A stretch of DNA of 32,000 nucleotides from assembly GCA_024275415.1 (NCBI GenBank), contig JAJRZD010000058.1, positions 1 through 32,000 on the forward strand. The letters run 5' to 3'. The DNA is from an archaeon. Lineage in GTDB: Archaea > Asgardarchaeota > Thorarchaeia > Thorarchaeales > Thorarchaeaceae. Below are positions 3,051-31,980 of the stretch, one piece after another. The translations under genes and the position numbers were made by a program. How positions within the stretch are numbered: position 1 is the stretch's first letter; the number at the start of each line of letters is the position of its first letter. Below the pieces are notes generated by a model. It had not been told where the DNA came from. It was given only the letters and a program-made list of their open reading frames with translations, and did not search any database.

Positions 3051-3119
3051 GAGGGATGGATACCTGATTAATGCAAAAAAGACCTGTTTTCTCGTTGGGG
3101 CCAGACCTGATGACCGAGC

Positions 3120-3776
3120 TTACGGATAGTACAAATCCCAGTCTGGATGGAAGCTGTGGATCATTGCCATTATCTCATTGTAGGCGTTCTCAGAGAAGTA
3201 GGGCTCAGGATTCTGCCATTGTCCGTCTTTGATTACCCCGAAATGGATATGGGCACTACCTCCGACATGCAGAAAATCGGCAATCTTCTCGCCAATGTCC
3301 ACCCAGTCGCCTTCTTGGATTTCTAACATCTCCAGTTGGAGATCCTTGTCAGAAGAGTCCTGTGTCCATGGCTCGAAATTGTAATGCACAACAACAGACG
3401 CGTTGAACCTGATGACCACTGTGATGTAGAACCGGTTCTCCACGTTCTCACCGTTGTCAGAGATATCTATCGACTCGACCAGACCAGGTGCGGCAGCAAT
3501 GACTGTAGAACCGTTCCTGAAGAAATAGTCAATCCCATTATGCACGAAGCCCCACGGGCAGTTGTCACTCTCGCTATATCCCTCGTTGAATGCTACAATG
3601 TCAGTTCTGTTCTCGTAGATGACTCCCATGTAGTCAAGCTCGTCCGCATCATAGCGACCTCCAGCGTCGAATGTAGGAGCCAATGGGGTTGAACCTTCGT
3701 TTGAACCTTTGAGGGCTACGACCACACCAATTCCCATGAGAAGTATTAGCAGGCATACCACTGATTTTCGTGCCAT
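3120..3776 (-). CDS. Membrane-anchored M23-family peptidase (copy 2, close paralog of 211..855)
   Basis: Near-identical protein with the same HNGID/HIH motifs; 4 aa longer near the N-terminus. Confidence 0.8.
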   Translation of the reverse strand: MARKSVVCLLILLMGIGVVVALKGSNEGSTPLAPTFDAGGRYDADELDYMGVIYENRTDIVAFNEGYSESDNCPWGFVHNGIDYFFRNGSTVIAAAPGLVESIDISDNGENVENRFYITVVIRFNASVVVHYNFEPWTQDSSDKDLQLEMLEIQEGDWVDIGEKIADFLHVGGSAHIHFGVIKDGQWQNPEPYFSENAYNEIMAMIHSFHPDWDLYYP

Positions 3777-3869
3777 ATAGAGATAGTGTGGGCAGTTCCT
3801 AAAAACATTTGTTCCAACTGTCTGGCACCATACTTTCGGAAACGGTAGTCTGTGAAGGCACTCGCTGGC

Positions 3870-3972
3870 TTATTGGCGGTTGTCCGGAGCAGTGGAGGTA
3901 GTTGTCTTCACAGAGAGGCGAACTCGGAGCCAAGAAGGCATGACCCAACCCATATAGGTCAGGACATAGGAC
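3870..3972 (-). pseudogene. 3' remnant of a 7TM paralog (SYVLTYMGWVMPSWLRVRLSVKTT...), truncated next to an IS end
   Basis: Aligns to the 3' end of 949..1689; homology stops about 15 bp before the TIR at 3987. Confidence 0.8.
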
Positions 3973-3986
3973 GGAGCCCTGATTAA

Positions 3987-4004
3987 GGAGCTGTGTGAAA
4001 AGTC
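3987..4004 (+). repeat. Orphan terminal inverted repeat GGAGCTGTGTGAAAAGTC of the IS5-like family
   Basis: 16/18 identical to the IS end at 7323; no partner end found nearby. Confidence 0.75.
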
Positions 4005-4190
4005 TGACTGAACGCCATAGAATTGACGGTAGTCCGATTGACTCTGAAATCTTATGACCCAGTTATTGGACTAGAAGTTCTGATGATGATTAATACGTGG
4101 ATGATAGAACCTTTGGACATTACTCAAACTTTTAATATCATCTTTCTGTGGACAGGTTCTTACAAGAGCATTATCCGACGAGGGTGCTAG

Positions 4191-4946
4191 AAAACGGAAG
4201 GCATCGTACTATTAACAGTTAGTGGAATCCTAGGAATAGTTGCAGGTTTCGCATCAGGGCTTTTTGGAATAGGTGGCGGTTCTATCAGAATCCCCTTATT
4301 GAAAATAGCAGGGTTCAGCTTGATATCAGCCTATGGGATCAATATCCTGACGCTTCCTATTACAGCCTCAATCGGTGCGGCTTCACAGAGAAAGAATATT
4401 GACTATCGGCTTGGGCTGTATATGGTTCTAGGTGGGTCCCTGGGAACGGTCATCGGAACCTTCATTGCATTCTCGATAGCGACCTCAGAAATACTCCTCG
4501 CGATTGTCTTCTTCCTCGCATCGATAACAGCGGTTGTCGCGCTGAACCTGAAACGAATCGCTCCAGAAACAACGGACGGTCTTGTGGCTTCGCGGGAAAG
4601 TGTTTCTATTGGTACTTGCACATGTAATGTCTTGACTGGGATAAGGGGAGGAAGCGAAGGCTCACTATTCGTTCCACTCCTTACTGCTCTGAATGTTGAT
4701 ACTCACAGAGCCATCGCAACGTCTCTCTTTGCGGCTGTCTTTACGGCTACGGTCGGCATCTTCATGTATTGGAGCAACGGATACCTTTTGATACCAGAGG
4801 GGCTTGCCGTCGTCATCGGTTCCGTGGTGGGTGCGCGACTAGGGAGTCGTGTGTCACTCAAGACGAGATCCAGGGTCTTGGAGTTAGGTCTCACAGCTGT
4901 CATCCTTGTCTTGGCATTCATAACACTGCTGACCACCTTGGCCTAG
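4191..4946 (+). CDS. TauE/SafE-family (DUF81) membrane protein; start uncertain, possibly frameshifted
   Basis: The frame is open from 4191 and contains GLFGIGGGSIRIP upstream of the called TTG; second repeat GIRGGSEGSLFVP and AIATSL. A GTG at 4184 is out of frame. Confidence 0.8.
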   Translation, partial: KTEGIVLLTVSGILGIVAGFASGLFGIGGGSIRIPLLKIAGFSLISAYGINILTLPITASIGAASQRKNIDYRLGLYMVLGGSLGTVIGTFIAFSIATSEILLAIVFFLASITAVVALNLKRIAPETTDGLVASRESVSIGTCTCNVLTGIRGGSEGSLFVPLLTALNVDTHRAIATSLFAAVFTATVGIFMYWSNGYLLIPEGLAVVIGSVVGARLGSRVSLKTRSRVLELGLTAVILVLAFITLLTTLA

Positions 4947-5149
4947 GCAGAGTGAATCCGAGAAACAGTCATGGCAAATGGACTAGACTCCTATGTGAAG
5001 TCATTTACAAGTTCCTTAAGATGCTTGATTTTTTTCTAGTATATTCATCCACAACTTGCCATTTGAACCAGTAATGTTCAAGTTCACCTTGGTGATATGT
5101 GCTTGTTGGCAACCTCAAAAATGAAGGGCGGGCAATAGGCGGCTTGATA

Positions 5150-5731
5150 GTGGAAAGGATAATGGTTTTCATCGATGGCATGAACTTTCGCAGGGCGTGG
5201 ATATCTGTTTGTACGGAGAGGGGCATGCCAAGACGTACTCGATTCGATGTGGTCAAACTGCGAAACCTATTGTCCGCGCTATCACCAGATCGTGAAGTAG
5301 TAAGAATACACTACTACAGCTCCACAATCCCACCAAAGGACTCGAAATACTACAACAATCTGAATAGCATCGACCCACGAGGCTTCAATGGAATGCTGAA
5401 GAGGAAAGGCTACAAGTGCTTCATTCTGAAAAATCGAGTCAGACATGAAAAATGTCCTCTCTGCGGGGAGAGATTCCCCATTGTCAAGGAGAAGGGTGTT
5501 GATGTTATGATTGCACTTGATATGATGATGAAAGGGATTGAAAATGCATTCGATGTGGCTCTGCTTGTCAGCGGTGATGCTGATTTCATACCAGTTGTGA
5601 ATCTGCTCACCAAGAAAGGGAAGAAAGTGGAGGTCGCACAGTTTAGTAATGCTATCTCATGGTTCTTGAGAAAGTCAGTGAATAGAGTCTATGATCTTGA
5701 CGGACATTTCGATGGTCTTGTTCTAAAATGA
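5150..5731 (+). CDS. NYN domain (LabA/DUF88) PIN-like nuclease with a CPLCG zinc-knuckle insert
   Basis: VFIDGMNF, KEKGVDVMIALDM, LVSGDADFIPVV and GKKVEV motifs; GTG at 5150 is the likely start. Confidence 0.9.
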   Translation: MERIMVFIDGMNFRRAWISVCTERGMPRRTRFDVVKLRNLLSALSPDREVVRIHYYSSTIPPKDSKYYNNLNSIDPRGFNGMLKRKGYKCFILKNRVRHEKCPLCGERFPIVKEKGVDVMIALDMMMKGIENAFDVALLVSGDADFIPVVNLLTKKGKKVEVAQFSNAISWFLRKSVNRVYDLDGHFDGLVLK

Positions 5732-6101
5732 ATGAAAGGCGAGGCAGTCAGTCATTTCGGTAGAGAATTACGACTGCTACGAGACTTAGTCTACTGCCCG
5801 CCGCGTCGTAATGTAGTTCATGATGAATATTAATAAACATAACGGAACTTTGAAACGATTTCAGAGAATCCGCATTATGAAAGGCATTATAGATACGGTC
5901 TGCTGTGTCTTCAATGACGTACCGGATCTGTGCATAGTTGCCCCAAAGATGAAGAATGTCTAGATTTGCCTATGTCTATTGTTGCTTGATGCGCTTTACG
6001 CAGGCATCGTCATCCTCAGCCCGAGTTTCGGTCCAATCGAAAAAAGATGCAACTCCGATTCTGATTCTTAGATCTGTATGGATATCATAACGACAGCTGT
6101 G

Positions 6102-6109
6102 TATAAATA
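6102..6109 (+). promoter_or_regulatory. Archaeal TATA box of the vapBC operon
   Basis: TATAAATA about 26-33 nt upstream of the ATG at 6135. Confidence 0.55.
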
Positions 6110-6134
6110 GGGATGATATGGATATGTATCAGAG

Positions 6135-6359
6135 ATGGGACTAATGTCAAAAAACATCATGATCAGCAATGAGGTCTATTCACGACTTCGAGCTATAAAG
6201 AGAGATGATGAGTCATTCAGCGATTTGATCCGAAGACTCCTGAATTACCAGAGAACAAGTCTACTTGACCTCGCGGGAGAATGGCCATTTTCTGCAAGAG
6301 AAACCAGTGAGAAAGAAAAACAGTTAGAGGAAACCTGGCAGAAAGGGTGGCGTAAATGA
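6135..6359 (+). CDS. vapB: VapB-type antitoxin (archaeal DUF217-like)
   Basis: SKNIMISNEVYSRL...ESFSDLIRRLL; stop overlaps the PIN toxin start. Confidence 0.85.
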   Translation: MGLMSKNIMISNEVYSRLRAIKRDDESFSDLIRRLLNYQRTSLLDLAGEWPFSARETSEKEKQLEETWQKGWRK

Positions 6360-6772
6360 CTCTATTATCATTGGACACATCATTTCTGATAGATTTTCTG
6401 GCAGGTGAGTCATCGGCCGTAGAGAAAATGAAGCAAATAGAAATCGATGGAGATATGACATCTGTATCAAGTGTTGTCGTATACGAGCTACTCGTCCTGT
6501 CAGCAGATGACCGAAAACCAAACCGAGCTCAGAAAGCAATCAATACAGTAGAATCACTCCTCTCCAGGATAGGGGTTATATGGCCATTTAACACCAGTGT
6601 AGCACGACTTGCTGCAGAAATACAGAGAATTCAGATGCTTAAGGGAAAACCTGTTAGTGTTCGTGACTTGTTCATAGCTGCTTCATCTTTAGCAAATGGT
6701 TGCAACACAGTGATTACGAAGAATGTTAGAGATTTTGAAGTTATAGACGGGATCAAAGTTGAATCGTATTGA
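6356..6772 (+). CDS. vapC: VapC PIN-domain toxin
   Basis: LDTSFLIDFL, VYELL, DLFIAA and ITKNVRDF acidic PIN motifs; 138 aa. Confidence 0.92.
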   Translation: MTLLSLDTSFLIDFLAGESSAVEKMKQIEIDGDMTSVSSVVVYELLVLSADDRKPNRAQKAINTVESLLSRIGVIWPFNTSVARLAAEIQRIQMLKGKPVSVRDLFIAASSLANGCNTVITKNVRDFEVIDGIKVESY

Positions 6773-6875
6773 AACAATAATCAGAACGAAATGTGGGGTA
6801 AGACCAAGATGATTAGTATCAAACGTAGTCATGAAAATGACACCGTACTAGCAGAAAGTAAAAAACTTACCAATC

Positions 6876-7133
6876 TTGTCATCAGGCATTGTAGTCAGAA
6901 CCGTAATTATAGCAAGACGTCTTGGGGTGTCACCTTCCACCTTGAGGAGGTGGGAACGCAAAGGGGCATATATACCACGTAATACGACACTAATGCAGTG
7001 CAGGTCCTGCGGACAAGCTGTGGACCGTCACACCAATGCTGCCATGACCTATGCTAACCGAGCCCTGTCCGCATACCAGGGCTCAATCCAGGCTTCTCCT
7101 TGCGGAGGTGACACGTTTGTACAAGTTCAATAG
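6876..7133 (+). mobile_element. Internally deleted IS607-like remnant (TnpA HTH joined to the TnpB C-terminus)
   Basis: IARRLGVSPSTLRRWERKG (MerR-like HTH of IS607 TnpA) followed directly by QCRSCG..DRHTNAA (TnpB Zn finger and final RuvC motif). Confidence 0.7.
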
Positions 7134-7322
7134 TATGCGTATGTCAGTTTTAGGTGACATACAATCATTAAAAACTATGACAATGAGGATGAATAGCAGC
7201 TCGTAAGATTCCCTTTTCAAAATCACATCTATCATTAACCCCAGCATCCCGTTATTCTCTTGCTTTAATGAATTACTTGATACCATCATAACTGACTGTG
7301 ATGCGAACAATGGCACAATTTC

Positions 7323-16402: not shown

Positions 16403-17107
16403 ATGACTGCAAAGAAACGTATTGTGTATATTGCGACTGTTGGGAGTAGTATTGAACCAGTTCAAAAGGGAATTCTCTATGCATCGCCTGATATCGCATA
16501 TCTTCTATTTGGGGCAAGTCCAAAGCTTAAAGAGAGAAATCCAGAGCTTGTCGCACGGAAGGTTAAGGAGAACATAAAACCATTGGGGCTAACAAAATGT
16601 CATCTCCGAGAGATTGATGCTTTCTCCTTAGAGAGTGTTATGACCGAGGTTATCAAAATCTGGCAGAAACACATGAAGGACAGAATCATCGCCAATATGA
16701 CAGGGGGAACTAACATTATGGCTTCTGCCTGTCTTCTTGCAGGTTTCACTGCATCCGCAGATGTGATCTATGTGAAGGAAGTGCAGGAAGGAGAAGATAT
16801 TCCACTTCGTGAGCAAGTCATCGTTCTTCCAACTCCGAGAATCCCTCTCACTAGCTTGACTGACGAACAACAGGAGATACTCCGACTACTCCTGAATGAA
16901 ACTGAGGCTGGCACAACTCTTCTCGCAAGGGCAAATAGCAGAATTGCAGACCATATGAAAGTAACGCCTCAGACAATTTCGCACCACCTTAAACGCATGG
17001 AACAGAAGGCATTGATACGCCGGGAGAAGGAAGGTAGGCACCTGAATGTAGAACTAACCCCATCAGGGCTTCTATTTGCAAGAATGCTTGAAAAAACAAA
17101 AGAGTGA
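16403..17107 (+). CDS. csa3: Csa3-like CARF-winged-HTH transcriptional regulator
   Basis: N-terminal CARF (YIATVGSSIEP, IIANMTGGTNIMA, DVIYV) and C-terminal wHTH (IADHMKVTPQTISHHLKRME..LI...GR...ELTPSG). Confidence 0.8.
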   Translation: MTAKKRIVYIATVGSSIEPVQKGILYASPDIAYLLFGASPKLKERNPELVARKVKENIKPLGLTKCHLREIDAFSLESVMTEVIKIWQKHMKDRIIANMTGGTNIMASACLLAGFTASADVIYVKEVQEGEDIPLREQVIVLPTPRIPLTSLTDEQQEILRLLLNETEAGTTLLARANSRIADHMKVTPQTISHHLKRMEQKALIRREKEGRHLNVELTPSGLLFARMLEKTKE

Positions 17108-17784: not shown

Positions 17785-18759
17785 ATGGTATCGCGGGGGT
17801 ATGAATTGAGAGCGTTTTCGTCTTCGGGCTTCAAACCATTGGAAATTGTAAGTGATGGCGACCTTGATGGAATTTTTGCGGTAGGCATTCTGTTAAGGTA
17901 TTTTGATAGCGTTGGTATTTCGATACCATCTCGATTTCCCGCACCTAGAGAGCTACACAATCTCACTGTGGAAGATTCGATTCTTGTCGAGCTCGGTCCA
18001 ACAAAGGGACTACGGTTCAGAGGACATAATATGTTGATTGACCATCATGAGGGTTTCTCTGGGATTTACATGTTCAATGGCCCCGATATGGAAAGTCCAA
18101 TAGCAGAATTCGATGGTATAATGTCGGTGGTAGAAATCGTAGTGGCATATCTGAACAACGAAATCTTGATCGACTCTAGTATGCAAGAGTTAATCGACAT
18201 TGTGGGTGAGATTGACAATGGTGTATACAATCATCCAAAGGCTCGTGCTCTGCACCATGCATACATGCTAAACGTGACATCGAAAGAGATGAGGCAGAAA
18301 CTCCCAGAATGGGTACGAACTAATCAAGTGGACGTAATCTGGAAGTGGGTTGAGGTCGAATCGAAACGATGGGAACAAGTCCAGACGGTATCAGCAGCAT
18401 TGATTGATTCTGTATCAGAGGTGTCCTCAGATATCGGATTCATTTTAGTCGATTTAGATGATAATATCCAACAGATGGCTGCACGCGAGGCTATGCTTCA
18501 ACTAGAGGAACAATATAGAATCGTAATAACACTACTAGGAACCCATAACAAAGAATGGATGATCTCCCGAGGCGGCATCGGTTCAAAGAGTCATTCCGTT
18601 GACTTCACATCATTATATGACCTTCTCAGAGAGAAAGGACTGACCGCGGGTGGACGACCAACAATTGGAGGGTTTCAGTTTCTAGAGCCATATCCACTGG
18701 CCAATGTTCTCGTTCTGCTACGTAATGTTCTTGCGAGGGTTAGTGATGACAGAAAATAA
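17785..18759 (+). CDS. DHH/DHHA1-family phosphoesterase
   Basis: SDGDLDG (DxDG), LVELG, LIDHH, GEID and C-terminal AGGRPTIGG (variant of GGH..A.G). Confidence 0.85.
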   Translation: MVSRGYELRAFSSSGFKPLEIVSDGDLDGIFAVGILLRYFDSVGISIPSRFPAPRELHNLTVEDSILVELGPTKGLRFRGHNMLIDHHEGFSGIYMFNGPDMESPIAEFDGIMSVVEIVVAYLNNEILIDSSMQELIDIVGEIDNGVYNHPKARALHHAYMLNVTSKEMRQKLPEWVRTNQVDVIWKWVEVESKRWEQVQTVSAALIDSVSEVSSDIGFILVDLDDNIQQMAAREAMLQLEEQYRIVITLLGTHNKEWMISRGGIGSKSHSVDFTSLYDLLREKGLTAGGRPTIGGFQFLEPYPLANVLVLLRNVLARVSDDRK

Positions 18760-19873
18760 CAAATTAAAAGTGCATAGAGAAAAATCGTTCAAATTAGCGA
18801 ATCTTGATATTGCAGCATCGATGTACGAGTATATAGAAATCGACGAAGTGGAGTTAGAATGGGTAGACAAGTTTCTTACTATGAGGGCTTATGAGGACAA
18901 GCCGTCCAAGAAAACAAAAGCAGATTTTGATAAACACTGGATCGTAGGGAAACTTCTAATTAAGATGCCTTACTCGTTGACTTGTAGAAGTTCTGATGAT
19001 GTGCAGATGAAAAAAAATGAAGATAGTAACTCATTAGATTTAGAAATACGTTTGAGAGATGTGATTCCGGAGGTTAATCTACTTCTAAACCAAATAATTG
19101 CGATTGTCTATGATGGTTCTCGTGACAAAATTCTACGCGAGATTCAAAGCAGTGTGAATATAGCTATTGAAGAGATGCTGTCAACAATGAAAACAGGGCA
19201 AATAAGTCCCTTTCTGTGCTCACTAAGTCTGTTCAAGTCAAAAATAGATTGGCTAAGAAGGACGGATGCAAAGGATTTCAAACCTCAGCACTCGGTATCA
19301 AATGATTGCAAGCAGCTTCGTGTTAGTTTAAGTTCACAAGATTCCGTTAGTCAATTGCTGGGATATTTCGATAACACAGCTAAATACAATTTGTATGTCT
19401 TTACTGTTGGAACGTTTGATCCTATTCTGTTAGAAAGATACAGTAAATTCCTGGATGGGTTAATTTCTGATGGAACAAAGTACATGTTGTTTGTTGGCAC
19501 TGAGTATTCAGGGAAGGAACTGGATAAGATATCTAACAACATTAGAAACCAAGAAATTAAAATAAAAAAAATCACAATCTATTCTTCAAAGGATAAAGCA
19601 TCACCTAACGGAACTGACCGGATATCTAAGGAAATTGAGGGAATGGACAGAATTGATAAAGCGGCAGTCATAATCTCTGCATTTCCAAAGAAACTCATAA
19701 AACCTTTACTTCAGGACTGCAAGCAATTGCTCAAATGTGGGGTAGGATCGGTGGATATCGTATCCACCGCTACAATACCGCTCCCAGCTCCAATTGAAGA
19801 TGATGATGGTTCTCCAACTAGAAAGCCTCGCATAATAGGATTCATTATGGGGCAAATCGAGGATTTCGTATAA
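18746..19873 (+). CDS. Uncharacterised protein with a putative divergent C-terminal CARF-like domain
   Basis: The ATG at 18746 overlaps the DHH stop region; the C-terminal 160 aa show a beta-alpha pattern YVFTVGTFDP..YMLFVGTE..AVIISAFPKKL..VDIV. Confidence 0.6.
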   Translation: MTENNKLKVHREKSFKLANLDIAASMYEYIEIDEVELEWVDKFLTMRAYEDKPSKKTKADFDKHWIVGKLLIKMPYSLTCRSSDDVQMKKNEDSNSLDLEIRLRDVIPEVNLLLNQIIAIVYDGSRDKILREIQSSVNIAIEEMLSTMKTGQISPFLCSLSLFKSKIDWLRRTDAKDFKPQHSVSNDCKQLRVSLSSQDSVSQLLGYFDNTAKYNLYVFTVGTFDPILLERYSKFLDGLISDGTKYMLFVGTEYSGKELDKISNNIRNQEIKIKKITIYSSKDKASPNGTDRISKEIEGMDRIDKAAVIISAFPKKLIKPLLQDCKQLLKCGVGSVDIVSTATIPLPAPIEDDDGSPTRKPRIIGFIMGQIEDFV

Positions 19874-19893: not shown

Positions 19894-21090
19894 ATGGAGA
19901 TAGGATATTTTGTAAAACTTGATGACAATTCCAGAAAGTATTTCTACAAATACCTCGATGCTCTAAGCTTTTTCTCTCTCTCTGTCGACGAGTCCGCTTT
20001 GAGGAATGTTAGTCTTATCGGAATCACATCTTCTCTAGACAATTGTAGATGTCACAGAAATCTTACTTTCTATTTATCTAAAGGCCACACCAGCAAACAA
20101 ATGAAATCTCTAAGGTTACTTTTAGAAGGGCTGAAATATGCTTCTGCCAATCCATTGATTCCATTTGACGCCGATTGCACATTGGTAACTTCAGATAACG
20201 CCGTAAATCCCCAACTAGAACGGTTCCATAATGTGTACTCGGCCCATATGAAGGCACCAAAAGCTAACTGTTGTAATGTGCTCTCCATTCTACCATGGTT
20301 ACTACATCATGATCGCACAGGGCATTGGCTTAGGAAAAAAATCGCTCAGGATTTACTCAAACTCCACCAATTGAGTCTTGCGAATTATTTTGGAGCACCA
20401 TGCACTAGTATGACTGATGTCATGTCAGGGATAGAGTCGGTCATGTTCGGAGCATACGAGCGCAAGCTACGACCACCATCATCACAGGGGCATACAACAG
20501 GATTCGACAAATTCATTGAGAAGCACAAAATCCAAGATATAAGAGAGTTTATCGAGAAGCTTGAAGAAATCGATTTGGGAAAATGCAAAAATCTCTTTGA
20601 AAAAATATGCAATATTGATGAGTCCATTCTAACAACAACTTTTGGAAGACTTGCAAGACAAGGCCAGGATGAGATGCTGAACTATTCGGATTATAAAAGT
20701 CACGGTCTTGATGAAATAGAAAGAACAGATAATGATTGCATCCTTTTTATGACTGAACAGACAGGCCTTTTTGATGTCTTACTTGCGATGAAGAAATATG
20801 GGAAGCTATACATAATGTACTCGCCTCTAGTCATAGTGCATAGATTTCTTACTGAAGCGATTCGTTCAACAATTTCAGGGTCTAGCTCGATGGGGTGTGA
20901 AGTGAGTCATCATTTCTATCCTGCATATACACCACAAGTGGTTGAAGCCTTGATAAAAAACATTCGAAAATGCAAAAACAATCAGCTTGATATTATCGTC
21001 GGAGGATCTGAGGGTGTATACCTTGTATTAATGAAAATGAAGAATCAACAACCTGAAAGAATCAAGTTGATGACATCGATTAAAGAGTAA
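19894..21090 (+). CDS. Uncharacterised protein with a putative divergent C-terminal CARF-like domain
   Basis: AGGAGG ribosome-binding site at 19881; C-terminus ILFMTEQ..KLYIMYS..YTPQVVEALIKNI..LDIIVGGSEGVYLVL. Confidence 0.6.
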   Translation: MEIGYFVKLDDNSRKYFYKYLDALSFFSLSVDESALRNVSLIGITSSLDNCRCHRNLTFYLSKGHTSKQMKSLRLLLEGLKYASANPLIPFDADCTLVTSDNAVNPQLERFHNVYSAHMKAPKANCCNVLSILPWLLHHDRTGHWLRKKIAQDLLKLHQLSLANYFGAPCTSMTDVMSGIESVMFGAYERKLRPPSSQGHTTGFDKFIEKHKIQDIREFIEKLEEIDLGKCKNLFEKICNIDESILTTTFGRLARQGQDEMLNYSDYKSHGLDEIERTDNDCILFMTEQTGLFDVLLAMKKYGKLYIMYSPLVIVHRFLTEAIRSTISGSSSMGCEVSHHFYPAYTPQVVEALIKNIRKCKNNQLDIIVGGSEGVYLVLMKMKNQQPERIKLMTSIKE

Positions 21091-21101
21091 TGCCCAGCAT
21101 T

Positions 21102-21233
21102 GGAGCTGTGTGAAAAGACAGCTGGAGGTTTCTGTTTGAAATTAGCATGAATGATTGCGTGTCAGAGTTCCAACACCTCGATCCTTATCACCATTGATTT
21201 TATGACGGCCGATGGGACTTTTCACACAGAACC
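21102..21233. mobile_element. 132-bp MITE, copy 2, with a perfect 9-bp target-site duplication
   Basis: CCCAGCATT at 21093-21101 and 21234-21242; 18-bp imperfect TIRs. Confidence 0.9.
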
Positions 21234-21828
21234 CCCAGCATTCATGTAATTTTACAAAGGACGTACCCGACGAACTGGATATACTTCAGAATCAATCATG
21301 GAAATCCACTTCTGGAAATTTTTCTGTCCCTTGATTGGACTAGTCCTTTGAATATGCACAATGCAGGCCAGATACCTGATAAAGAGTCGTTGGTTCCAAG
21401 ACCGGTCAGACTGCGGCTCTGGAATAATCCGAATGATATGGAAGAAAGTTGCAAGTTTTGAACATGGTCTTGTCACTTTTCGGACAACCAAAATGAGAAC
21501 GGCGAGTCATTCTCATCAAACATTATGGACTGGAGGGACTTTTTCCATTGAGCCTCAGACTGGAAAATCAATAAAAAAAAGAATGTGGTCGCTCAGGTCG
21601 TTTCCAACATCACACTCCAGCCCTATATGATGAATTCTGTTTTGGATTACTGGAGGTATTCAGAAAATTTCTCTGCTGTGGTAGTTCTCACGGCACTGTA
21701 GAATGATGCGCTAGTTCATAGAAGCAATATCAACGATTAATGGATTCGTTTCTAATGCTGAAGGTTTGGTTCTCACTCAATGCCTAAGACTGTGATTTAG
21801 TCTACAGGGTCAGTTCTCACGGCAGAAA

Positions 21829-21834
21829 TATATA
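21829..21834 (+). promoter_or_regulatory. TATA box of the cas operon
   Basis: TATATA with purine-rich GCAGAAA upstream, about 27-33 nt before the GTG at 21862. Confidence 0.55.
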
Positions 21835-21861
21835 GGACAGTGTACAACGGTCAATTCATTA

Positions 21862-23301
21862 GTGGGGGTGTGGATTATCCCATTTCTGGTTGCAATAAAA
21901 GCATTAAAGATTCAAGATTTGATTCATAGTTCTTCAAGACTGAAAGAAGTCGCAGGTGGAAGCCACCTTTTGGGCATGTATTGTGAAGTGGTTTCAGAAA
22001 GAATCGCAAAACACATCACCCAAGGGGATAGAAACAAGTATGATTTCAAGCGTAACAAGGGGGGTGTCGTAATTGCCACCTTTGACGATGAAGAGCATGC
22101 CAACGAGTTTATTCGTTTTATGAGAGAATGTTATCGGAGGTTATTTGGTCGTCGAGTCATAAGTTCAACTGCGCCGATCGAAATCAACAGCGACACATCT
22201 AGAGATCTAGAGGAATTGGAAAATGATATCATTCGTTCACGATATGCAGGATTTCCGCCTAGCTCGCACATTCAAAATCCTTATGTCAAAATCTGCTGGT
22301 CGTGTGGTGAAAGACCCGCGGAAATAGAAGATCCTGACTCTTTATCCTCCAACATGACATCAACACATCGTCACGTTTGTGCCCCATGTGGATTGCGATT
22401 TCGGATTTTTAAGGATTACAAGGAGATTATGGAACGCAAACTAAGCGGGCCGTTCAACAAAATTCCTTCTGGAGTTGATGATATTGCAAAACATGGCCCG
22501 AATGGCTATGTTGCATACATGCTGAGTGACGGGAATAGCTTTGGATCCTTTGTACGTGAAATAAAGGATATGAATAGTTACACGGCATTCAACAATGCCC
22601 TTCCGAAAACAGTTTCAGATAGTCTATTCTCGGTTCTTGACGAATTTGATTCAACCAATACTGACATCACTGCTCCCATGCTTCCCCTTATGACAGGGGG
22701 CGATGATTTGCTAATTCTTCTTCCCGCAAAATGGGGGATAAGCATGGCATTTGACTTTGTTAGTAGATTCGAAGAAAAAGCCAAGAAACTTATAGACTGC
22801 TCTAACAGTAAACAAATGCTTACTATGTCAGCAGGCGTCGTCATATGCAAGCAAACCCTCTCACATAAAATCGTTTATACAGTCGGAGAGAGTGTCATAA
22901 AAAGGGCAAAGCAGACCTCGAAGGAGCACGGAGTCTGTTCTTCCGTGGCATTTCAAATTCTCGCGGGTTCTAAACGAGGTTCCGAAACATCTTACAATAG
23001 ATTGATGCCTGGAGGTGTCTGTGGTGGTTTCAAAAAAACAGAACTAGAGAACGTCCTTGCATATCGCAAGCGGTTAGAGAAATTGCCTTCTGGATTGAGA
23101 AGAAGATTGAAACATCACCTCTTTTCGGATTCCGCACATGCGGAAACTGAGAGAGAGAGGATATTAGAACTTATTTCTGAACGAGATGATTCTATGGCTG
23201 AAGAGGTCAAAAAACTGCTGAAGGACGAAAAGCAAATCCTTTTTGCAATGCTTGAAGGGTGGGATTACTTGGAGAGTCATAAGGGGGCGATCATAAAATG
23301 A
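21862..23301 (+). CDS. cas10: Cas10, type III-D, lacking the HD domain; intact Palm2 GGDD
   Basis: KIQDLI..RLKEVAGGSHLL (Palm1), CWSC...CAPC zinc finger, SDGNSFG, MTGGDDL, MSAGVVI; 479 aa. Confidence 0.93.
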   Translation: MGVWIIPFLVAIKALKIQDLIHSSSRLKEVAGGSHLLGMYCEVVSERIAKHITQGDRNKYDFKRNKGGVVIATFDDEEHANEFIRFMRECYRRLFGRRVISSTAPIEINSDTSRDLEELENDIIRSRYAGFPPSSHIQNPYVKICWSCGERPAEIEDPDSLSSNMTSTHRHVCAPCGLRFRIFKDYKEIMERKLSGPFNKIPSGVDDIAKHGPNGYVAYMLSDGNSFGSFVREIKDMNSYTAFNNALPKTVSDSLFSVLDEFDSTNTDITAPMLPLMTGGDDLLILLPAKWGISMAFDFVSRFEEKAKKLIDCSNSKQMLTMSAGVVICKQTLSHKIVYTVGESVIKRAKQTSKEHGVCSSVAFQILAGSKRGSETSYNRLMPGGVCGGFKKTELENVLAYRKRLEKLPSGLRRRLKHHLFSDSAHAETERERILELISERDDSMAEEVKKLLKDEKQILFAMLEGWDYLESHKGAIIK

Positions 23302-25415
23302 AATTGCATTTCACTCTCAGGTTCTTATCGGACTTTCATCTTGGTTCTGGGAAAGGGTCGTCAGAGGTAGATGGATTGCTTGTGCGTGAATCTGATGATG
23401 CAGATGCACAGTTAACAATCAAAGGAACAACTATTGTGGGTGTGTTGCGGCAGTCACTCTATGATTTGATACAATTGAATCCTTTTAGCAACGAAAGAAA
23501 ATGCAAGCGTTCAGGGAAAAGTAACGGGAGTGAATTTTGTACAGGATCTAAAGAAGAACAGTGTCCTATATGTCGTATTCTTGGGACACCAAAACAAGTA
23601 AAGCCATGGTTCTTTTCTTCTGGACGACTGTCAGACGATGTGTCAACACAGACAATCACTCGTTCGTCAATAGATAGAGAAACCAGGACAAGTAAAGAAG
23701 GAAAATTATTCACATATGAGGTGGGTTCGAAAGAAACAAGTTTCCAGTTCGTTGTGGAACATGATGTTTCTTCATCAGATGTTTTGTGGGATGCTGCATA
23801 TATTGTTGCAGGCTTTCGATTCATAAGGTCATTGGGATCTAGTAGGAGAAGAGGAAAAGGTAGATGCATCATCAACCTAACTAAGGTACAACCCGACATA
23901 GAGGGAGAGAATCCTCAATCATTCTTCTTGGAATTGTTTAATCAAGTATATACTGGTGGCAATAATGTTGAAAAGCCTGAAGAGCTTGATAAAGCAAAAA
24001 TAGCAGCCAATGCAGCTGAGTATATAGTAGAAGTTCGGACAGAAGAACCAGTCCTCATAACTCAGAATAGAGGTTCTGGCAATCTGTATTCAGGACTTGA
24101 CTTCATTCCAGGATCTACTCTCAGAGGAGCATTGGCATGGAAGGCGATTCGTGGAGGCATTCTTGCCTCTGAAGAAGGAGAAGAGATTTTCAAAACCATG
24201 TTCACCGAAGGGAAACTTCGAGTCGGAAATTGTTATCCAGCAGGACATGATGACAAAGCAGCAATACCCACCCCGATGAATCTTCGATTCTGCGAGTTCT
24301 ATCCAAACCAACACGATATTTCAAGAAACATGAAACACCCAATGAAATGTGAATCGTGCAGAAAAGAGAATCGAGAGGCAAAAATGGACAAGAGCAAACA
24401 CTTTCTCGATTCAAACATGATGCTCGTCAGGAATAACTCAACCCACGACATGCATATCGAAATTGATCCTGAGGAAGGTACTGTAAGAGAAGGTGTATTA
24501 TATGGATATGAAGGTATCTCGATGAAATCTAGATTTCTCGGAGCCATCAATGTAGAACCCGAGATTCTCTCCAAATTCTTAGGATATTTCTATGATGATG
24601 TTAAACAAGAATCAGAGAAGATAGCAATACAATTGCAGATTGGAAAGGCAACTAGGAGAGGCTATGGAAAATCAATTGTTACTCTAACACCGAAATCGAA
24701 TGTGTTGTATGTGTATACATGGGACTCGATTGAGAATAGAGTAAATACGATTAACAAAACATTCACGCTGACATTCATATCTGACGCGATACTGATAGAC
24801 AAATATGGCCGCTATCTTAATCAAATCAATAAAGATTATTTGTATGGGCTTTTGGGATATGAAACCGAAATTGTTGGGCAAGTTATTAGAACCAAGTACG
24901 TCGAGCAATTTGATATGCGAAGCGGACTCCCCCGGTGGCGCAACAGTGCAATCATTGCAGGTTCCGTAGTAGAATTCAGGCTTAAAAATACAACTGATGT
25001 CGACGTGAAGGGGCTTCAAGATAAACTTAAGGAAATCGAGTCCAACGGAGTAGGCATAAAAACAGTGGAAGGATTTGGAGTCGTCTGCTTTAATCATCCT
25101 GCTCAAATCCTAGTCTGTTTACAAAATCGTCAAGCAACACAGGATGCGGAAAGACAAAAAGAAAAGGAACTTGAAACTGTTAGGGATGTTAGAGAACCTG
25201 ATAAGAAAAGCAAGGAAAAACTTGTAGCCATTGCTAGATTATTATACACAGGGGAGGGAGAAGTGGACAAGCTGGAGAAGATACAGAAATCGCTTAAACA
25301 GGATGATGAATTAAGAATTCACCTCAGAAGAATCATCAATGAAATCAAGAAATACAAGCAGGAGGGCAAAAAGATTAGCGATATCGCGGAACGAATCTAT
25401 GAGGGAGGGATCTAG
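23298..25415 (+). CDS. csx10: Cas7-Cas5 (Csx10) fusion with a C-terminal helical, putative Cas11 region
   Basis: FHLGSG..VDG, IKGTTIVGVLR, LGSSRRRGKG (Cas7); FIPGSTLRGAL, GKATRRGYG, GIKTVEGFG (Cas5/Csx10); charged helical last 100 aa or so. Confidence 0.85.
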   Translation: MKLHFTLRFLSDFHLGSGKGSSEVDGLLVRESDDADAQLTIKGTTIVGVLRQSLYDLIQLNPFSNERKCKRSGKSNGSEFCTGSKEEQCPICRILGTPKQVKPWFFSSGRLSDDVSTQTITRSSIDRETRTSKEGKLFTYEVGSKETSFQFVVEHDVSSSDVLWDAAYIVAGFRFIRSLGSSRRRGKGRCIINLTKVQPDIEGENPQSFFLELFNQVYTGGNNVEKPEELDKAKIAANAAEYIVEVRTEEPVLITQNRGSGNLYSGLDFIPGSTLRGALAWKAIRGGILASEEGEEIFKTMFTEGKLRVGNCYPAGHDDKAAIPTPMNLRFCEFYPNQHDISRNMKHPMKCESCRKENREAKMDKSKHFLDSNMMLVRNNSTHDMHIEIDPEEGTVREGVLYGYEGISMKSRFLGAINVEPEILSKFLGYFYDDVKQESEKIAIQLQIGKATRRGYGKSIVTLTPKSNVLYVYTWDSIENRVNTINKTFTLTFISDAILIDKYGRYLNQINKDYLYGLLGYETEIVGQVIRTKYVEQFDMRSGLPRWRNSAIIAGSVVEFRLKNTTDVDVKGLQDKLKEIESNGVGIKTVEGFGVVCFNHPAQILVCLQNRQATQDAERQKEKELETVRDVREPDKKSKEKLVAIARLLYTGEGEVDKLEKIQKSLKQDDELRIHLRRIINEIKKYKQEGKKISDIAERIYEGGI

Positions 25416-25418
25416 ACC

Positions 25419-27089
25419 ATGATAGGATTGGTAATTCGAGGGAAACTGAAACTTTTGACAAATCTGCACATCGGTTCCGGCATTTCGAATGACTACACCG
25501 ATTTACCTGTTATTCGCGATTCCGAAGGTATGGTCTTCATCCCAGGTACGTCGATTGCTGGAGCATTGCGAAGTGGTCTAGAAAAACTGCAGGAAATGAT
25601 AGATATTGACCACATTGAAGAACCACTTTGCGACTGTCCGGCTTGCACCCTCTTTGGGTCATTTCCATCTACCGAGTATGAAAGGGATTTGTCGCCAACT
25701 CTGACCGCATCAAAGATTTGGGTGTATGACTCGTACGTTTCCTCAGCTGCAAGTAAGGACAGATCGATTTCATCTATTCGCGATCATGTCGGTATAAGCA
25801 GAGTTAATTCAACGGCAGCCTATCACGCCAAGTATAATGAGGAGTCCGTGGTTGCAGGAACTGAGTTTGATTTCTGTATCGCGATAGAATCTGATGCGGA
25901 ACACCTTCACATGCTTGCGGCAGTCCTGAATGAATGGAAGTCAGGACGGGGCGCTCTAGGAGGTGGCCGGTCAAAAGGCTTTGGGAGAGTCAAGCTTGAT
26001 AACATCAAGGTTTTCAAAATCAATCTTTCATCCATTGATAAAGTTATAGCCTATTTACAATGCGATGATATACTGACAGCGGTGAGTTCTTTGTTTCTCT
26101 CTGAGGAGCCTAATTGGCTGCAGGATGAACTAGATAGAAGTAAGGATTGCTTTGCCACAGACAAATCAAGGAGAGTGTATACCGAAATCGACCTAAAATT
26201 GACTGTCGATGGAGGAGTGGTTGTGAGTGACATCGTTTCAGAGGTTATTGAAGATACGGATATCGCACCTATCAAACAATGTGACAAGTATATTATTCCC
26301 GGATCTTCATTGCGAGGCGCTTTCCGAGCCCAAGCTGAACGGGTTGCTAGAACAGTTGTGACGATGGATACAACAGACCGTGGTGATTACTTGAAGAAGT
26401 GTCCCGCATGCCATCCCTTCAATCTTCCCAGTTCGAAAAAGGGCAGTTGTGAATCGGGTTACAGGGTCAAGATAGAGGAAGGACAAATAGTTGACATAAA
26501 AAGTGAGGTATGTCTTGCTTGCCGCTTCTTTGGGATGACTCATCTTGGTAGTAGGATATCCATCTCAGATGGGATTGTAGAAAAACATCTGGAGCCAGAC
26601 CGATTCAATTTTGTAGCAATCGACCGATTTACCGGTGGAAGCCTAGATAAAGCGCTGTTTAATGCAAAAGTTCTAATGTATCCAAAATTCAAAACGAAAA
26701 TAATCATAGAAAATCCAGCAGATTGGGAGTTGGGATGGCTCTATCTTGTCATTCGTGACATTCAAGATGGGTTTGTGTCCATTGGTTGGGGAAAGAGCAA
26801 ATGGTTTGGTCGACTAGGTTTAGAGAGTATTAACGTAAGAGAACTTTGGACAATTGAAAAGTCAGTACAAGAGAAAACGGATGTAGAAGGTGTATTTGTT
26901 ATAAAGAACAGGTTTTCTTCATTCGATAATCTGTGGAAAGAAGCAGCTAAATCGTATTGCAGTGAATTTCTAAAAACATTGAGTGCTCATGAATGGGGAC
27001 TGCAAAATGGTGAGGACTCGTACTTCAAGGAAGTAAATGATACATTATCACTTTCGGATATCTATCCTAGGGAGGGATTACAAAAATGA
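25419..27089 (+). CDS. cas7: Cas7-Cas7 tandem RAMP (Csm3-like x2)
   Basis: Two RAMP repeats: LHIGSG..TD..IPGTSIAGALR..LGGGRSKGFG and IPGSSLRGAFR..IDRFTGG..IGWGKSKWFG. Confidence 0.9.
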   Translation: MIGLVIRGKLKLLTNLHIGSGISNDYTDLPVIRDSEGMVFIPGTSIAGALRSGLEKLQEMIDIDHIEEPLCDCPACTLFGSFPSTEYERDLSPTLTASKIWVYDSYVSSAASKDRSISSIRDHVGISRVNSTAAYHAKYNEESVVAGTEFDFCIAIESDAEHLHMLAAVLNEWKSGRGALGGGRSKGFGRVKLDNIKVFKINLSSIDKVIAYLQCDDILTAVSSLFLSEEPNWLQDELDRSKDCFATDKSRRVYTEIDLKLTVDGGVVVSDIVSEVIEDTDIAPIKQCDKYIIPGSSLRGAFRAQAERVARTVVTMDTTDRGDYLKKCPACHPFNLPSSKKGSCESGYRVKIEEGQIVDIKSEVCLACRFFGMTHLGSRISISDGIVEKHLEPDRFNFVAIDRFTGGSLDKALFNAKVLMYPKFKTKIIIENPADWELGWLYLVIRDIQDGFVSIGWGKSKWFGRLGLESINVRELWTIEKSVQEKTDVEGVFVIKNRFSSFDNLWKEAAKSYCSEFLKTLSAHEWGLQNGEDSYFKEVNDTLSLSDIYPREGLQK

Positions 27090-27631
27090 ATGACGAAGTG
27101 GCAGACATTATCGATGAGTTGCTGGCTGATTCTCAGGTCAGTGAGGATATTGTAGTATACCATGGAGTGACACAAGAGCCAAAAGATATCATCAAAGAAT
27201 TCTTTCCCAGTAACAGTGGACTCTGTATCTGCGAGGGGCTCAATGGTATCCGTTTCGAAAAACAACAGGATTTTTCGTCGGATGACATGATGATCAGATT
27301 GAAGGTGTTCGATGAAGATGGAGACCTTGAAATCTGGCGGATAGATGAGAATTTTGGTTGGAGATTTATTGGTAAACCGAAAGGCAATCAAAAACACGAA
27401 CAACTCGAGTTGGATAAAGACCATTGGTTCGTAAGAGAGATAAAGGTCAATCTCTGGGGGTCTGAATCCCGTGATGGTCAGAGGTTCGAGTCCAGAATGG
27501 CAGCTGCAAATCTAAGATATCCCATTGATGATACATCAAAACCGGTGAATCTAAGGATACGAGAATACTCAAGAAAGGGTACACTTCAATTCGTAAGATA
27601 TGTCAGTCTAGAAACGGAGGGGGATAAATGA
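27086..27631 (+). CDS. csx19: Csx19
   Basis: RLKVFDEDGDLEIWR, LWG, LRYP, IREY..FVRY pattern; canonical position between the Cas7 genes. Confidence 0.85.
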   Translation: MNDEVADIIDELLADSQVSEDIVVYHGVTQEPKDIIKEFFPSNSGLCICEGLNGIRFEKQQDFSSDDMMIRLKVFDEDGDLEIWRIDENFGWRFIGKPKGNQKHEQLELDKDHWFVREIKVNLWGSESRDGQRFESRMAAANLRYPIDDTSKPVNLRIREYSRKGTLQFVRYVSLETEGDK

Positions 27632-29622
27632 ATTCCATTTTCAAATTTTATAATCCATACAATTTTGTTAGACCTATTAGAAAGAGGGATTCATCATCTA
27701 TCGATAAGGATTCGATTCTGATGGATAGATGCCCACCACCGCCCCATGATCGGTACATCAGCTATACAGGTCGAATTCAGTGCAGGCTTGAAGTGAAAAC
27801 ACCATTACTTATTGGTATGTATAAGGATTCTGACATGCCAAATAATAGTGCAAGAAGAATCGAATTCTTCAAGATGAAGAGATCAGATGGCAAGCTCACA
27901 CCGACAATTCCTTCCTCATCTCTCCGAGGAGTGATCAGGTCAGTATTCGAGGCAGCTACGAACTCATGCTTTGCCATCTTCGATGACTCAAGACTATTCA
28001 AGAGGATGAAGCCGGAAAAAAGCTTGGAGTTCATCCCAGCTAGACTAGAAAGGAACGGAAATAGTTGGATTGCCAGATTGTTCAGGGGGCCCAGAACAAA
28101 AACTGACGATGATCACCTTCAATATGCAGCGTGGATTAAAGCGTACAAAGATGAGGCGACACACCAAAGAGCTGATAGATATCAAAAAAGGCCAAAAATA
28201 AGAGAACTAAAAGATTTCAAGCATGGCGAAAAATGTTATGCGATAATAGAGAATAAAGAATACTCTCGAGGACGATTTTGTTTTCATAACGTGATATCTT
28301 TGCACAATACTCAACCCGAAAAGGTTGATAATGATCAGTATTGTGTAGAAGGGTATGTTTACAATAAAGGCAAGAATATTAGACGTAAGCATGACGAACG
28401 ATTCTTTTTCCCTGCAGATAGTAAGGAAATATGTGAAATATCTGAAGGAGTAATTGCAGACTACAAGAAGCTTCTTGATGAACGTGAGAACAAAGAAAAG
28501 CTGTTTAATGGTAGCTTGGTATGGGTGAAACCGAGCGAGAATGAAAAAGAAGTAGATGCAATTATCCCCGTTGCAATATCCAAGATTCGTTATCACAAGT
28601 CCAGAGGTGACCTTCTTGCGCAGTATGACCTTTTGAATTGCACAGACATCTCTAAACTATGTCCAGCTTGTCGGGTTTTCGGATGGGTACCTGTAACAGA
28701 TCAACAAACAGATTTGCGAGATTCTGGATTCAAGGGGAGAGTTGGTTTCAATCATGCATTTCTAAAAGATCAGAAGCATTTGAAGAAAGAGGAATTGATA
28801 CTTACCTTAGCGAGTCCTAAGCCTACAGCGAAGTCGTTCTATTTGTTAGATGATGAAACACCTTCAGGTCAAGTGGATTACGATTCACATAGTGCATCAA
28901 TTCGTGGTAGGAAATTCTTCCTTCATCACAAGAGATTCACATTCCCGCAAGGAAAAAGTAAACCTAACGAAAAAACCGATACAATCATCACGGAATTCGT
29001 TGGCTACAAAGCTGATTTTGATTTCGTAGTTGAGTTCGAAAATCTAGCTGCTGTTGAACTCGGTGCTTTGGTTTGGGCGCTCACACTTGAAGAGGGAATG
29101 TATCACCGACTTGGTATGGCGAAAGCTTATGGATTTGGTAGTGTAAGGATATCCATCAAGGAGGATGGTCTTATACTATATGACATGCGGAGTAGATACA
29201 CTAGCTCCAAAAAAGTGCTGAACCAACCTGCCGATTCGAGATCATTCATTCAGTCGTTCAAGAAGGCTATGAAGAAACTATATGGTGAATTTGATGAGCT
29301 GGGTAATATCAAGGATTTGAAATCTATCCTATCAGGTCCAGATGATGATATTCCCATTCATTATCCGAGATGTAAGAGGGAATACTCGGATGACAATAAG
29401 GGCTATGAATGGTTTATGGCTGCAAAGAAACACAAGGGAGTATTATCAAAAGCAGTCCCTTTGAAACCGCTTGATTCTAAACCGTGTCGAGAAGAACAGA
29501 ATAAAAAATCACAAAATAAAACAAAGAGAGGGGCACGAACACGTGGACATAAATCCAAAGACAAGCAAAAGGGTGGAACTAGAAAAAAGAAGGGCCGACA
29601 TTCATGGCAGACTCGGAGATAG
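27628..29622 (+). CDS. cas7: Cas7 with a large insertion (terminal type III-D RAMP)
   Basis: FYNPYNFV, IPSSSLRGVIRS, LCPACRVFG, LASPKPT, RGRKFF, LGMAKAYGFG. Confidence 0.9.
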   Translation: MNSIFKFYNPYNFVRPIRKRDSSSIDKDSILMDRCPPPPHDRYISYTGRIQCRLEVKTPLLIGMYKDSDMPNNSARRIEFFKMKRSDGKLTPTIPSSSLRGVIRSVFEAATNSCFAIFDDSRLFKRMKPEKSLEFIPARLERNGNSWIARLFRGPRTKTDDDHLQYAAWIKAYKDEATHQRADRYQKRPKIRELKDFKHGEKCYAIIENKEYSRGRFCFHNVISLHNTQPEKVDNDQYCVEGYVYNKGKNIRRKHDERFFFPADSKEICEISEGVIADYKKLLDERENKEKLFNGSLVWVKPSENEKEVDAIIPVAISKIRYHKSRGDLLAQYDLLNCTDISKLCPACRVFGWVPVTDQQTDLRDSGFKGRVGFNHAFLKDQKHLKKEELILTLASPKPTAKSFYLLDDETPSGQVDYDSHSASIRGRKFFLHHKRFTFPQGKSKPNEKTDTIITEFVGYKADFDFVVEFENLAAVELGALVWALTLEEGMYHRLGMAKAYGFGSVRISIKEDGLILYDMRSRYTSSKKVLNQPADSRSFIQSFKKAMKKLYGEFDELGNIKDLKSILSGPDDDIPIHYPRCKREYSDDNKGYEWFMAAKKHKGVLSKAVPLKPLDSKPCREEQNKKSQNKTKRGARTRGHKSKDKQKGGTRKKKGRHSWQTRR

Positions 29623-31518: not shown

Positions 31519-31980
31519 ATGGCAGATGGTGGGGATACCATGCAGAAAACTAGGTTGGTCTTAGACACATCAGTGTTCATGTTGGGAGGGTCGAATTTCA
31601 CATTCCGCCAGATAGAATCCAAGCTTGCAGAGAACACTCATGTCTTCGTATTTCTTACATGTGTGCGAAAGGAGTTGACGAAAAAAGCTGATGAGGGGTC
31701 TTCTGATGCCGTTGCGGGTCTGAAGCGTCTTGAAAGAATAACAAGACTATATACAGGTGCTACCGAAGTGCTCTACGTCCAGCAGACCTATGCGGACGAC
31801 CCGATATATGGATATCTTGCAAGGTGTACTGAAGCTACAGAATTCATAAGCAGAGATAGAGAACTCAAGCAGCGAGTCTATGACCTTAGAAATCCGCATG
31901 TCAGAGTATTCGACATTACTAGAAACGGGAAAATCCTCGAATTCGACCCTGATTGGAGACCTTATAGTAGATTCACGTAG
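31519..31980 (+). CDS. PIN-domain protein (Fcf1/Utp23/VapC9-like)
   Basis: LVLDTSVF, CVRKEL, ADDPI, FISRDRELKQRV. Confidence 0.8.
   Translation: MADGGDTMQKTRLVLDTSVFMLGGSNFTFRQIESKLAENTHVFVFLTCVRKELTKKADEGSSDAVAGLKRLERITRLYTGATEVLYVQQTYADDPIYGYLARCTEATEFISRDRELKQRVYDLRNPHVRVFDITRNGKILEFDPDWRPYSRFT

Follow-up and report, generated by a model that had tools for sequence, protein, structure and literature searches.

Here, we describe a five-gene operon at positions 21862-29622 (forward strand) of a 32,000-nucleotide (nt) stretch of archaeal DNA (assembly GCA_024275415.1, contig JAJRZD010000058.1, positions 1 to 32,000; hereafter the window), and we conclude, at a probability of about 0.8, that it gives a Thor-type Asgard archaeon a functional CRISPR-Cas effector module of type III-Dv. 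The genes run in the order cas10, a cas7-cas5 fusion with a helical tail, cas7-2x, csx19 and cas7-insertion (Table 1), and both order and domain content equal those of the III-Dv operon of Synechocystis sp. PCC 6803 (PDB 8s9t-8s9x; PMC11026444), bearing out the cyanobacterial type of fused architecture that a first-pass annotation of the window had proposed. All five open reading frames (ORFs) are intact, as that annotation had also stated, and each overlaps or abuts its neighbor through three ATGA start/stop overlaps and one 3-nt gap, such coupled junctions being the signature of a predicted translationally coupled operon. A TATA-like element, AAATATATA, is a candidate archaeal promoter element of cas10.

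Hidden Markov model (HMM) searches returned PADLOC, Pfam or NCBIfam family matches for all five genes, and for four of these proteins a chain of the Synechocystis structure 8s9t ranked first or second among PDB sequence matches. Cas10 was recognized by PADLOC (Cas10, 2.4e-46) and by Pfam (Cas10-Cmr2_palm2, 6e-11), with the III-Dv Cas10 chain 8s9t_C as its best PDB sequence match (2e-06). As first annotated, it has no HD domain, which is excluded because the stop-to-stop frame of cas10 spans just 501 codons and the protein begins directly in Palm1. The CxxC pairs of its zinc finger are kept in the three closest Cas10s, and its Palm motif, GGDD, was read in 48 of the 52 family Cas10s that could be extracted (AGDD in three, GGDE in one). 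In Synechocystis, a Cas10 with GGDD makes cyclic oligoadenylate (cOA), which activates Csx1 (PMC11026444). The Cas10s of the window clade measure 456-487 amino acids (aa), compared to 505-583 aa in most of the family.

The second gene encodes the Cas7-Cas5 fusion, whose Cas5 part matched PADLOC Cas5_IIId (7.5e-39, aa 245-622) and TIGR02674 (7.5e-23), with two RAMP stretches recognized in the fusion. Its best PDB match was 8s9t_A, at 6.6e-13 for the sequence alone and 8.9e-49 with the family profile. The AlphaFold model (mean predicted local distance difference test score, pLDDT, 71.8) matched 8s9v_A at a Foldseek E value of 2e-28 and superposed on it with a VIA Z score of 25.7 (model residues 2-607 on chain residues 3-596), and on Cmr3 chains with Z scores of 18-19 over residues 242-599. 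Candidate catalytic aspartates had been suggested for three Cas7 domains, and the motifs are real (EVDG at aa 23-26 of the fusion, YTDL at aa 26-29 and DTDI at aa 279-282 of Cas7-2x). D25 of the fusion aligns with D26 of Synechocystis Cas7-Cas5-Cas11 (8s9t_A), a residue experimentally found to be catalytic (PMC11026444); D28 of Cas7-2x (25500-25502) corresponds to D33 of Synechocystis Cas7-2x.1 by alignment offset; and the assignment of D281 (26259-26261), whose presumed Synechocystis counterpart is D246, comes only from the equivalent TD(I/L) motif that the second domain carries.

Cas7-2x was matched by PADLOC Cas7_IIId (3.1e-80) and Csx7 (3e-58) and contains two RAMP stretches (3.1e-41); its PDB matches were led by the III-D2 Cas7x3 protein (9wxh_D, 9.5e-21), followed by 8s9t_D (8.1e-18). 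The csx19 call stands on a PADLOC match (6.2e-20), on the position of the gene between cas7-2x and cas7-insertion and on the Pfam family PF27799 Csx19, carried by its orthologues in three loci (L009, L010, L094). Cas7-insertion matched TIGR03986 at 6.7e-111 (372 bits, cut-off 161) and, best among PDB sequences, 8s9t_E (6.8e-55). Because this alignment begins with residue 6 on chain residue 113, the window protein is taken to be without the 112-aa N-terminal domain of the Synechocystis protein, a domain that is unresolved in the structure (PMC11026444). At its other end (29479-29619), the protein carries a Lys/Arg-rich tail of ~45 aa after a conserved PLDSKPC motif, and a tail of this basic character recurs in the two closest orthologues (L009, L094).

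A Cas11 domain had also been tentatively annotated at the C-terminus of the fusion (23298..25415); a helical, probably homologous tail is indeed present there, though not a full-length Cas11. Past the GFGxxxFNHP motif, the tail measures 104-106 aa in the window protein and its nearest relative, versus 150-165 aa in ~60 family members. In the model, its helices span residues 636-651, 656-665, 671-685 and 690-701 (pLDDT 64-78), and the superposition of the whole fusion on 8s9v_A stops at residue 607, so that the tail itself is not superposed. The tail is colinear with the Cas11 domain of the family but ~50 aa shorter. By alignment, the window clade is without the first Trp-rich helix and a central loop, whereas the 'A(V/I)ARLL' helix and the final 'LA(D/E)xI' helix are retained. 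A profile of the tail alone had 8s9t_A (residues 581-773) as its top PDB match at an E value of 0.0095, to which the FNHP motif contributes part of the score. With that motif removed, the score of the tail on an HMM built from 61 long tails was 12.4 bits, a value reached by one of 1,000 composition-matched shuffles; in the same shuffle test, the tail of the closest orthologue gave 1 in 1,000 and that of the third 20 in 1,000. On these results, the tail can be read, with modest support, as a Cas11 domain homologue that has been truncated. The Cas10 C-terminus likewise serves as a small-subunit-like element in the Synechocystis complex (PMC11026444), which, by analogy, may explain how a reduced tail is tolerated.

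Table 1. Features of the operon and its upstream neighborhood, in window coordinates.
Feature	Position	Strand	Description
cas10	21862..23301	+	479 aa: Palm1, zinc finger, Palm2, helical C-terminal domain, no HD
Zinc-finger motif of Cas10	22294..22389	+	CWSC...CAPC (four Cys); read from sequence
Cyclase motif, Cas10 Palm2	22696..22707	+	GGDD, aa 279-282
cas7-cas5 fusion with helical tail	23298..25415	+	705 aa
Cas7.1 domain of fusion	23298..23990	+	~aa 1-230; RAMP 6-190; candidate catalytic D25 at 23370-23372
Cas5/Csx10 domain of fusion	24015..25106	+	~aa 240-603; ends in invariant GFGxxxFNHP
Shortened Cas11-like helical tail	25107..25415	+	aa 604-705; low-confidence linker helix and four short helices
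cas7-2x	25419..27089	+	556 aa, two Cas7 domains
csx19	27086..27631	+	181 aa
cas7-insertion	27628..29622	+	664 aa (TIGR03986)
Candidate promoter element	21826..21834	+	TATA-like AAATATATA, ~30 nt before cas10 start; read from sequence
CARF + winged-helix regulator	16403..17107	+	Csa3-like; PADLOC CARF3 2.1e-36; Pfam HFX_2341_N, DUF6293_C
Accessory gene A	17785..18759	+	DHH/DHHA1-like phosphoesterase; motifs DGDLDG, DHH, GGRPTIGG
Accessory gene B	18746..19873	+	Orphan family of 8, fused to A in L104
Accessory gene C	19894..21090	+	Orphan family, directly upstream of cas10
Intergenic region	21091..21861	.	Three MITE-like copies at ~21105-21230, 21410-21555 and 21692-21808

Comparison with described systems places the locus in type III-Dv. 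With the Synechocystis system (PMC11026444), it shares the HD-less Cas10 with GGDD, the positions of the Cas7 catalytic aspartates and the Cas7-Cas5 fold as well as the gene order. It differs in sequence (~20% identity), in its shorter Cas10 (575 aa in Synechocystis) and Cas11 tail (~104 versus ~190 aa), in the missing N-terminal domain of Cas7-insertion, in its archaeal host, in having no adjacent cas6, adaptation genes or array, and in carrying a cassette of a DHH-family gene and two orphan genes (A, B and C in Table 1) in place of the Csm6/Csx1 of Synechocystis. Type III-D2, in contrast, is defined by combining a Cas7x3 fusion and a GGDE motif with a CorA effector and a toxin-antitoxin module, and by lacking both Csx19 and a Cas11 part on Cas7-5 (PMC13294483). 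The III-D2 system of Gammaproteobacteria bacterium HyVt-522 (PDB 9wxh; PMC13294483) shares with the window the Cas7-Cas5 fusion, the HD-less Cas10, an insertion-bearing Cas7 and a phosphodiesterase theme, and it is its Cas7x3 that the second domain of the window Cas7-2x matches; it differs in each of the defining features above, makes one cut and produces SAM-AMP (S-adenosylmethionine-AMP). The first-pass description of the operon as III-Dv/III-D2-like can thus be narrowed to III-Dv, because cas7-2x stands apart from cas7-insertion as a gene of its own, the locus has a csx19, the palm motif is GGDD and no CorA is encoded; family searches of the window proteins found neither CorA nor any other membrane effector, and none of the distinguishing features of III-D2 were seen in the window. 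The III-Dv design is thought to lie between type III effectors made of several subunits and the single-protein effectors of type III-E. Cas7-insertion and Cas7-2x do match the III-E Cas7-11/gRAMP model NF041225 (1.1e-57 and 2.5e-24), with scores of 85-195 bits on window proteins compared to a cut-off of 700. In contrast to the single III-E polypeptide, which comes without Cas10, Cas5 or Csx19 and has a Csx29 protease partner, the window operon has five genes and an apparently active Cas10.

The architecture as such is ordinary, and the window represents a new, divergent and reduced case of the described III-Dv design. Scanning one genome per species for relatives of the fusion protein, we found 71 loci that encode them, with the same five-gene order in almost every contig that reaches far enough to display it. 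This order occurs in ~70 species genomes, most of them Chloroflexota, with other bacterial carriers in Acidobacteriota, Bacillota, KSB1, Thermodesulfobacteriota, Poribacteria and Planctomycetota. The archaeal carriers include Ca. Jordarchaeum madagascariense, Ca. Freyarchaeota SRVP19, one Halobacteria metagenome-assembled genome (MAG) and two further archaeal MAGs, to which a protein search added a homologue in Altiarchaeales. We call the architecture ordinary because of this spread over ~70 species, including other Asgard lineages (Jord- and Freyarchaeia), and because a type III-D locus in an Asgard genome, Ca. Odinarchaeum LCB_4, has already been published (PMC9246712). The loci of Ca. Freyarchaeota SRVP19 (CP147778) and Ca. 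Jordarchaeum madagascariense share the Asgard host and the five-gene order with the window, but are just 32-34% identical to it, carry a full-length tail of ~155 aa and are without the A-B-C cassette. Within the Thor clade, three orthologous operons are 48-62% identical and free of frameshifts, and the operon was found in 2 of 25 searched genomes of the family of the window. In a quick maximum-likelihood tree, the window, its two Thor-clade orthologues and sequence P0008 form a long-stemmed clade (SH-aLRT 100) that is sister (SH-aLRT 99) to a group of the Jord-, Frey-, Halobacteria and Altiarchaeales sequences and three bacterial ones; counting P0008, whose archaeal label is assumed, eight of the nine sequences labelled archaeal lie inside one 11-member clade.

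The window covers most of a 34-kb contig (C37) of a 3.5-Mb genome that is 92.9% complete. Its host is supported as an Asgard archaeon, as the first-pass annotation had thought probable (the label Thorarchaeota derives from the NCBI name given to an orthologue's record), because the genome carries an archaeal small-subunit (16S) rRNA fragment, a full-length eukaryote-type actin (443.6 bits, Pfam positions 5-407) and three EAP30/ESCRT-II matches above cut-off (none above it in 14 control genomes), and because repeats of the host lie inside the locus. Two other markers did not discriminate: the Pfam profilin search matched neither this genome nor the controls, and elongation factor 2 (EF-2) was 39-41% identical throughout to the named Asgard and Halobacteria genomes. 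Repeats within window positions 1-7200 recur on many other contigs and were found in 13 of 15 genomes of the same family and in none of 10 outside it; this part contains several short interspersed families and copies resembling miniature inverted-repeat transposable elements (MITEs) at 53-127, 2704-2893 and 6848-7140. Contig C60 overlaps the start of the contig at 100% identity. Three MITE-like repeats sit in the 772 nt that separate gene C from cas10, and blastn finds copies of them, at 73-88% identity, on more than 15 further contigs; the corresponding gap is just 111-165 nt in two orthologous loci (L009 and L094). A 24-nt direct repeat at 21672-21695 and 21801-21824 marks both ends of one of these copies. 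The closest operon, at 52-62% identity, belongs to a genome from the same GTDB family with an 86% identical EF-2 and an actin of its own, and another orthologous operon comes from a record named Candidatus Thorarchaeota archaeon. One same-family genome (G044) encodes a second, 35% identical EF-2 paralogue (contig C1, 120329-122536 and 163910-165934). The picture is one of a horizontally acquired defense island, resident for long enough to have collected host repeats.

CRISPR RNA (crRNA) for the complex is likely supplied in trans, from arrays elsewhere in the genome. This CRISPR-rich Asgard genome has six arrays with two repeat families (array and cas contigs C6, C29, C98, C113, C63 with two, C83 and C26), and four of them have 36-37-nt repeats ending in AGATTGAAAG (ATTGAAAG). 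One of these four adjoins cas1 on C113; cas1 is also found on C26, and the two cas6 genes of the genome are on contigs C83 and C26. Arrays beside other III-Dv operons have 37-nt repeats ending in ATTGA(A/G)A(C/G), and the array adjoining the Freyarchaeota III-Dv operon has a 37-nt repeat ending in GATTGAAAG (ATTGAAAG).

Upstream of cas10 lies the A-B-C cassette, three genes that have no family matches. Iterative searches delimited it, and it is inherited together with the operon in each of the three Thor-clade lineages. Gene A, which has no PADLOC match, showed Atlas features at 0.94 to DHHA1 clusters and a PDB match to the PAP phosphatase 8a8k at an E value of 0.05, and its orthologue matched RecJ TIGR00644 at 0.0019. 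Profile searches with gene B found nothing significant in Pfam, NCBIfam, PADLOC or PDB, nor did the gene C profile among PDB sequences. Motifs and predicted secondary structure suggest Rossmann-like C-terminal halves in both B and C; an AF2 model of C built on a three-sequence alignment was unusable (pLDDT 40). Two candidate identities were rejected: C as an HD nuclease, its HDRxGH motif not being conserved in the wider family, and B as a PD-(D/E)xK enzyme, a resemblance at motif level (D33...E50-x-K52) with no PDB, Pfam, NCBIfam or PADLOC support. Among 1.84 billion representatives, gene C has nine relatives, beside type III genes in most lineages, and strong matches among 301 genomes sampled across the phylum were confined to the GTDB family of the window (4 of 77 genomes); all genomes with gene C that could be tested have actin. 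The cassette also precedes cas10 in a fourth III-Dv locus (L102), adjoins CARF, cmr and cas6 genes at two loci of type III-B (L098, L101) and occurs in one locus (L099) with no cas genes within 8 kb. Conservation of the CARF regulator upstream of the cassette does not extend to L094, the orthologous locus of Thorarchaeota. Beyond the operon, the contig ends in a fragment of an SMC/Rad50-like ABC ATPase (minus strand, L002 3611-4561, equal to C37 33110-34061), and this fragment and a PIN_9-like ORF at window 31519-31980 may be further defense-island genes.

In the Synechocystis III-Dv complex, every subunit is present once on a 37-nt crRNA, and the complex makes three cuts 6 nt apart and synthesizes cOA (PMC11026444). 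By analogy, we infer that one copy each of Cas10, the Cas7-Cas5 fusion with its short Cas11, Cas7-2x, Csx19 and Cas7-insertion would assemble on one crRNA, with a protein mass of ~294 kDa, and that the crRNAs, drawn from the trans arrays, would carry a AUUGAAAG tag. D25 of Cas7.1, together with D28 and D281 of Cas7-2x, would cleave bound target RNA at three positions spaced by 6 nt, and binding of a non-self target would switch on the GGDD Palm of the HD-less Cas10 to produce a nucleotide second messenger. This messenger would most likely be cOA, and its receivers would probably be the A-B-C cassette and the CARF regulator.

Several observations weigh against a functional III-Dv module in this host. 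The NCBIfam match of Csx19 (TIGR03984, 2.2e-06) reached 27.4 bits, below the cut-off of 35, and Csx19 had no match among PDB sequences; the Cas11 tail is truncated and its homology support modest. No CRISPR array was found in the window (Tandem Repeats Finder and repeat search) or in the last 2 kb of the contig, and neither cas6 nor cas1 was found on the 34-kb contig. A second Cas10 adjoins cas6 on C83, and this second type III system may share the arrays and could be their main user. No sequencing runs holding the operon are listed, which leaves its expression unsupported. MITE-like repeats sit between the accessory genes and cas10. In composition, the contig has a GC content of 43%, 3 standard deviations (SD) below the genome median of 47.1% (SD 1.3), and the third lowest tetranucleotide correlation of 76 contigs compared; the operon region is its most deviant part, and its first 8 kb are normal. 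Such a composition, together with the bacterial majority among members of the operon family, would fit a mis-binned contig from a bacterium or another archaeon, a reading to which we give almost no credence: the suspicion raised by the low GC is rejected on the repeats that 1-7200 and 21091-21861 share with many contigs of the genome, and the 100% identical overlap with C60 and the closest operons, in the same-family genome with its similar EF-2 and actin and in the Candidatus Thorarchaeota record, point the same way. It is also improbable, if less so, that a horizontally acquired island has left the operon behind as a decaying orphan, one that no longer serves CRISPR immunity. The want of an array, cas6 and cas1 in cis, the GC content of 41-43% versus 47.1%, the three MITE-like repeats just upstream of cas10 and the presence of the operon in just 2 of 25 family genomes would all fit decay, but none of the five ORFs is broken and their start and stop codons are coupled, GGDD and the three Asp motifs have all been retained, other contigs of the genome carry compatible arrays, cas6 and cas1, and undisrupted orthologues in three lineages at 48-62% identity suggest purifying selection.

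An alternative that leaves the III-Dv assignment untouched concerns the messenger: Cas10 might make SAM-AMP or another conjugate in place of cOA, with the adjacent DHH-like enzyme as an NrN-like degrader. DHH-family NrN enzymes are known partners of SAM-AMP systems (PMC10600005), and the related III-D2 complex makes SAM-AMP and SAM-AMP2 (PMC13294483). The window locus resembles the NrN and CorA pair of those systems in that a DHH/DHHA1-like enzyme (gene A) is co-inherited with a non-Cas partner near cas10 and once fused to it, the A-B fusion paralleling NrN-CorA fusions; it differs in that B and C are soluble orphans and not CorA channels, and in that gene A has no PADLOC match. No CorA or other membrane effector is encoded in the locus, the GGDD motif is that of the cOA-producing Synechocystis enzyme and not the GGDE of III-D2, and a CARF-winged-helix regulator lies nearby, so that we consider a SAM-AMP product unlikely; the acceptor-site residues are not comparable, since the N-terminal Palm1 did not align by sequence. 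We very tentatively propose that the Thor-clade III-Dv system is reduced, its Cas10 being the shortest of the family, its small-subunit tail truncated and its Cas7-insertion without an N-terminal domain, and that the output of its Cas10 might be read by an undescribed, family-restricted A-B-C cassette that also serves III-B, through a messenger that is possibly not cOA.

Read as a type III-Dv effector module, the window operon leaves knowledge of type III-D itself unchanged, and it extends the structurally solved III-Dv design to Thor-type Asgard archaea. It shows the design tolerating a much shorter Cas10 and Cas11 tail, which is useful for annotation and for the engineering of minimal complexes. 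The cassette would escape surveys that take in only complete genomes and Cas10s of 500 aa or more (PMC11229360). The more unusual part of the locus is this co-inherited DHH-B-C cassette, which is a possible lead to something new.

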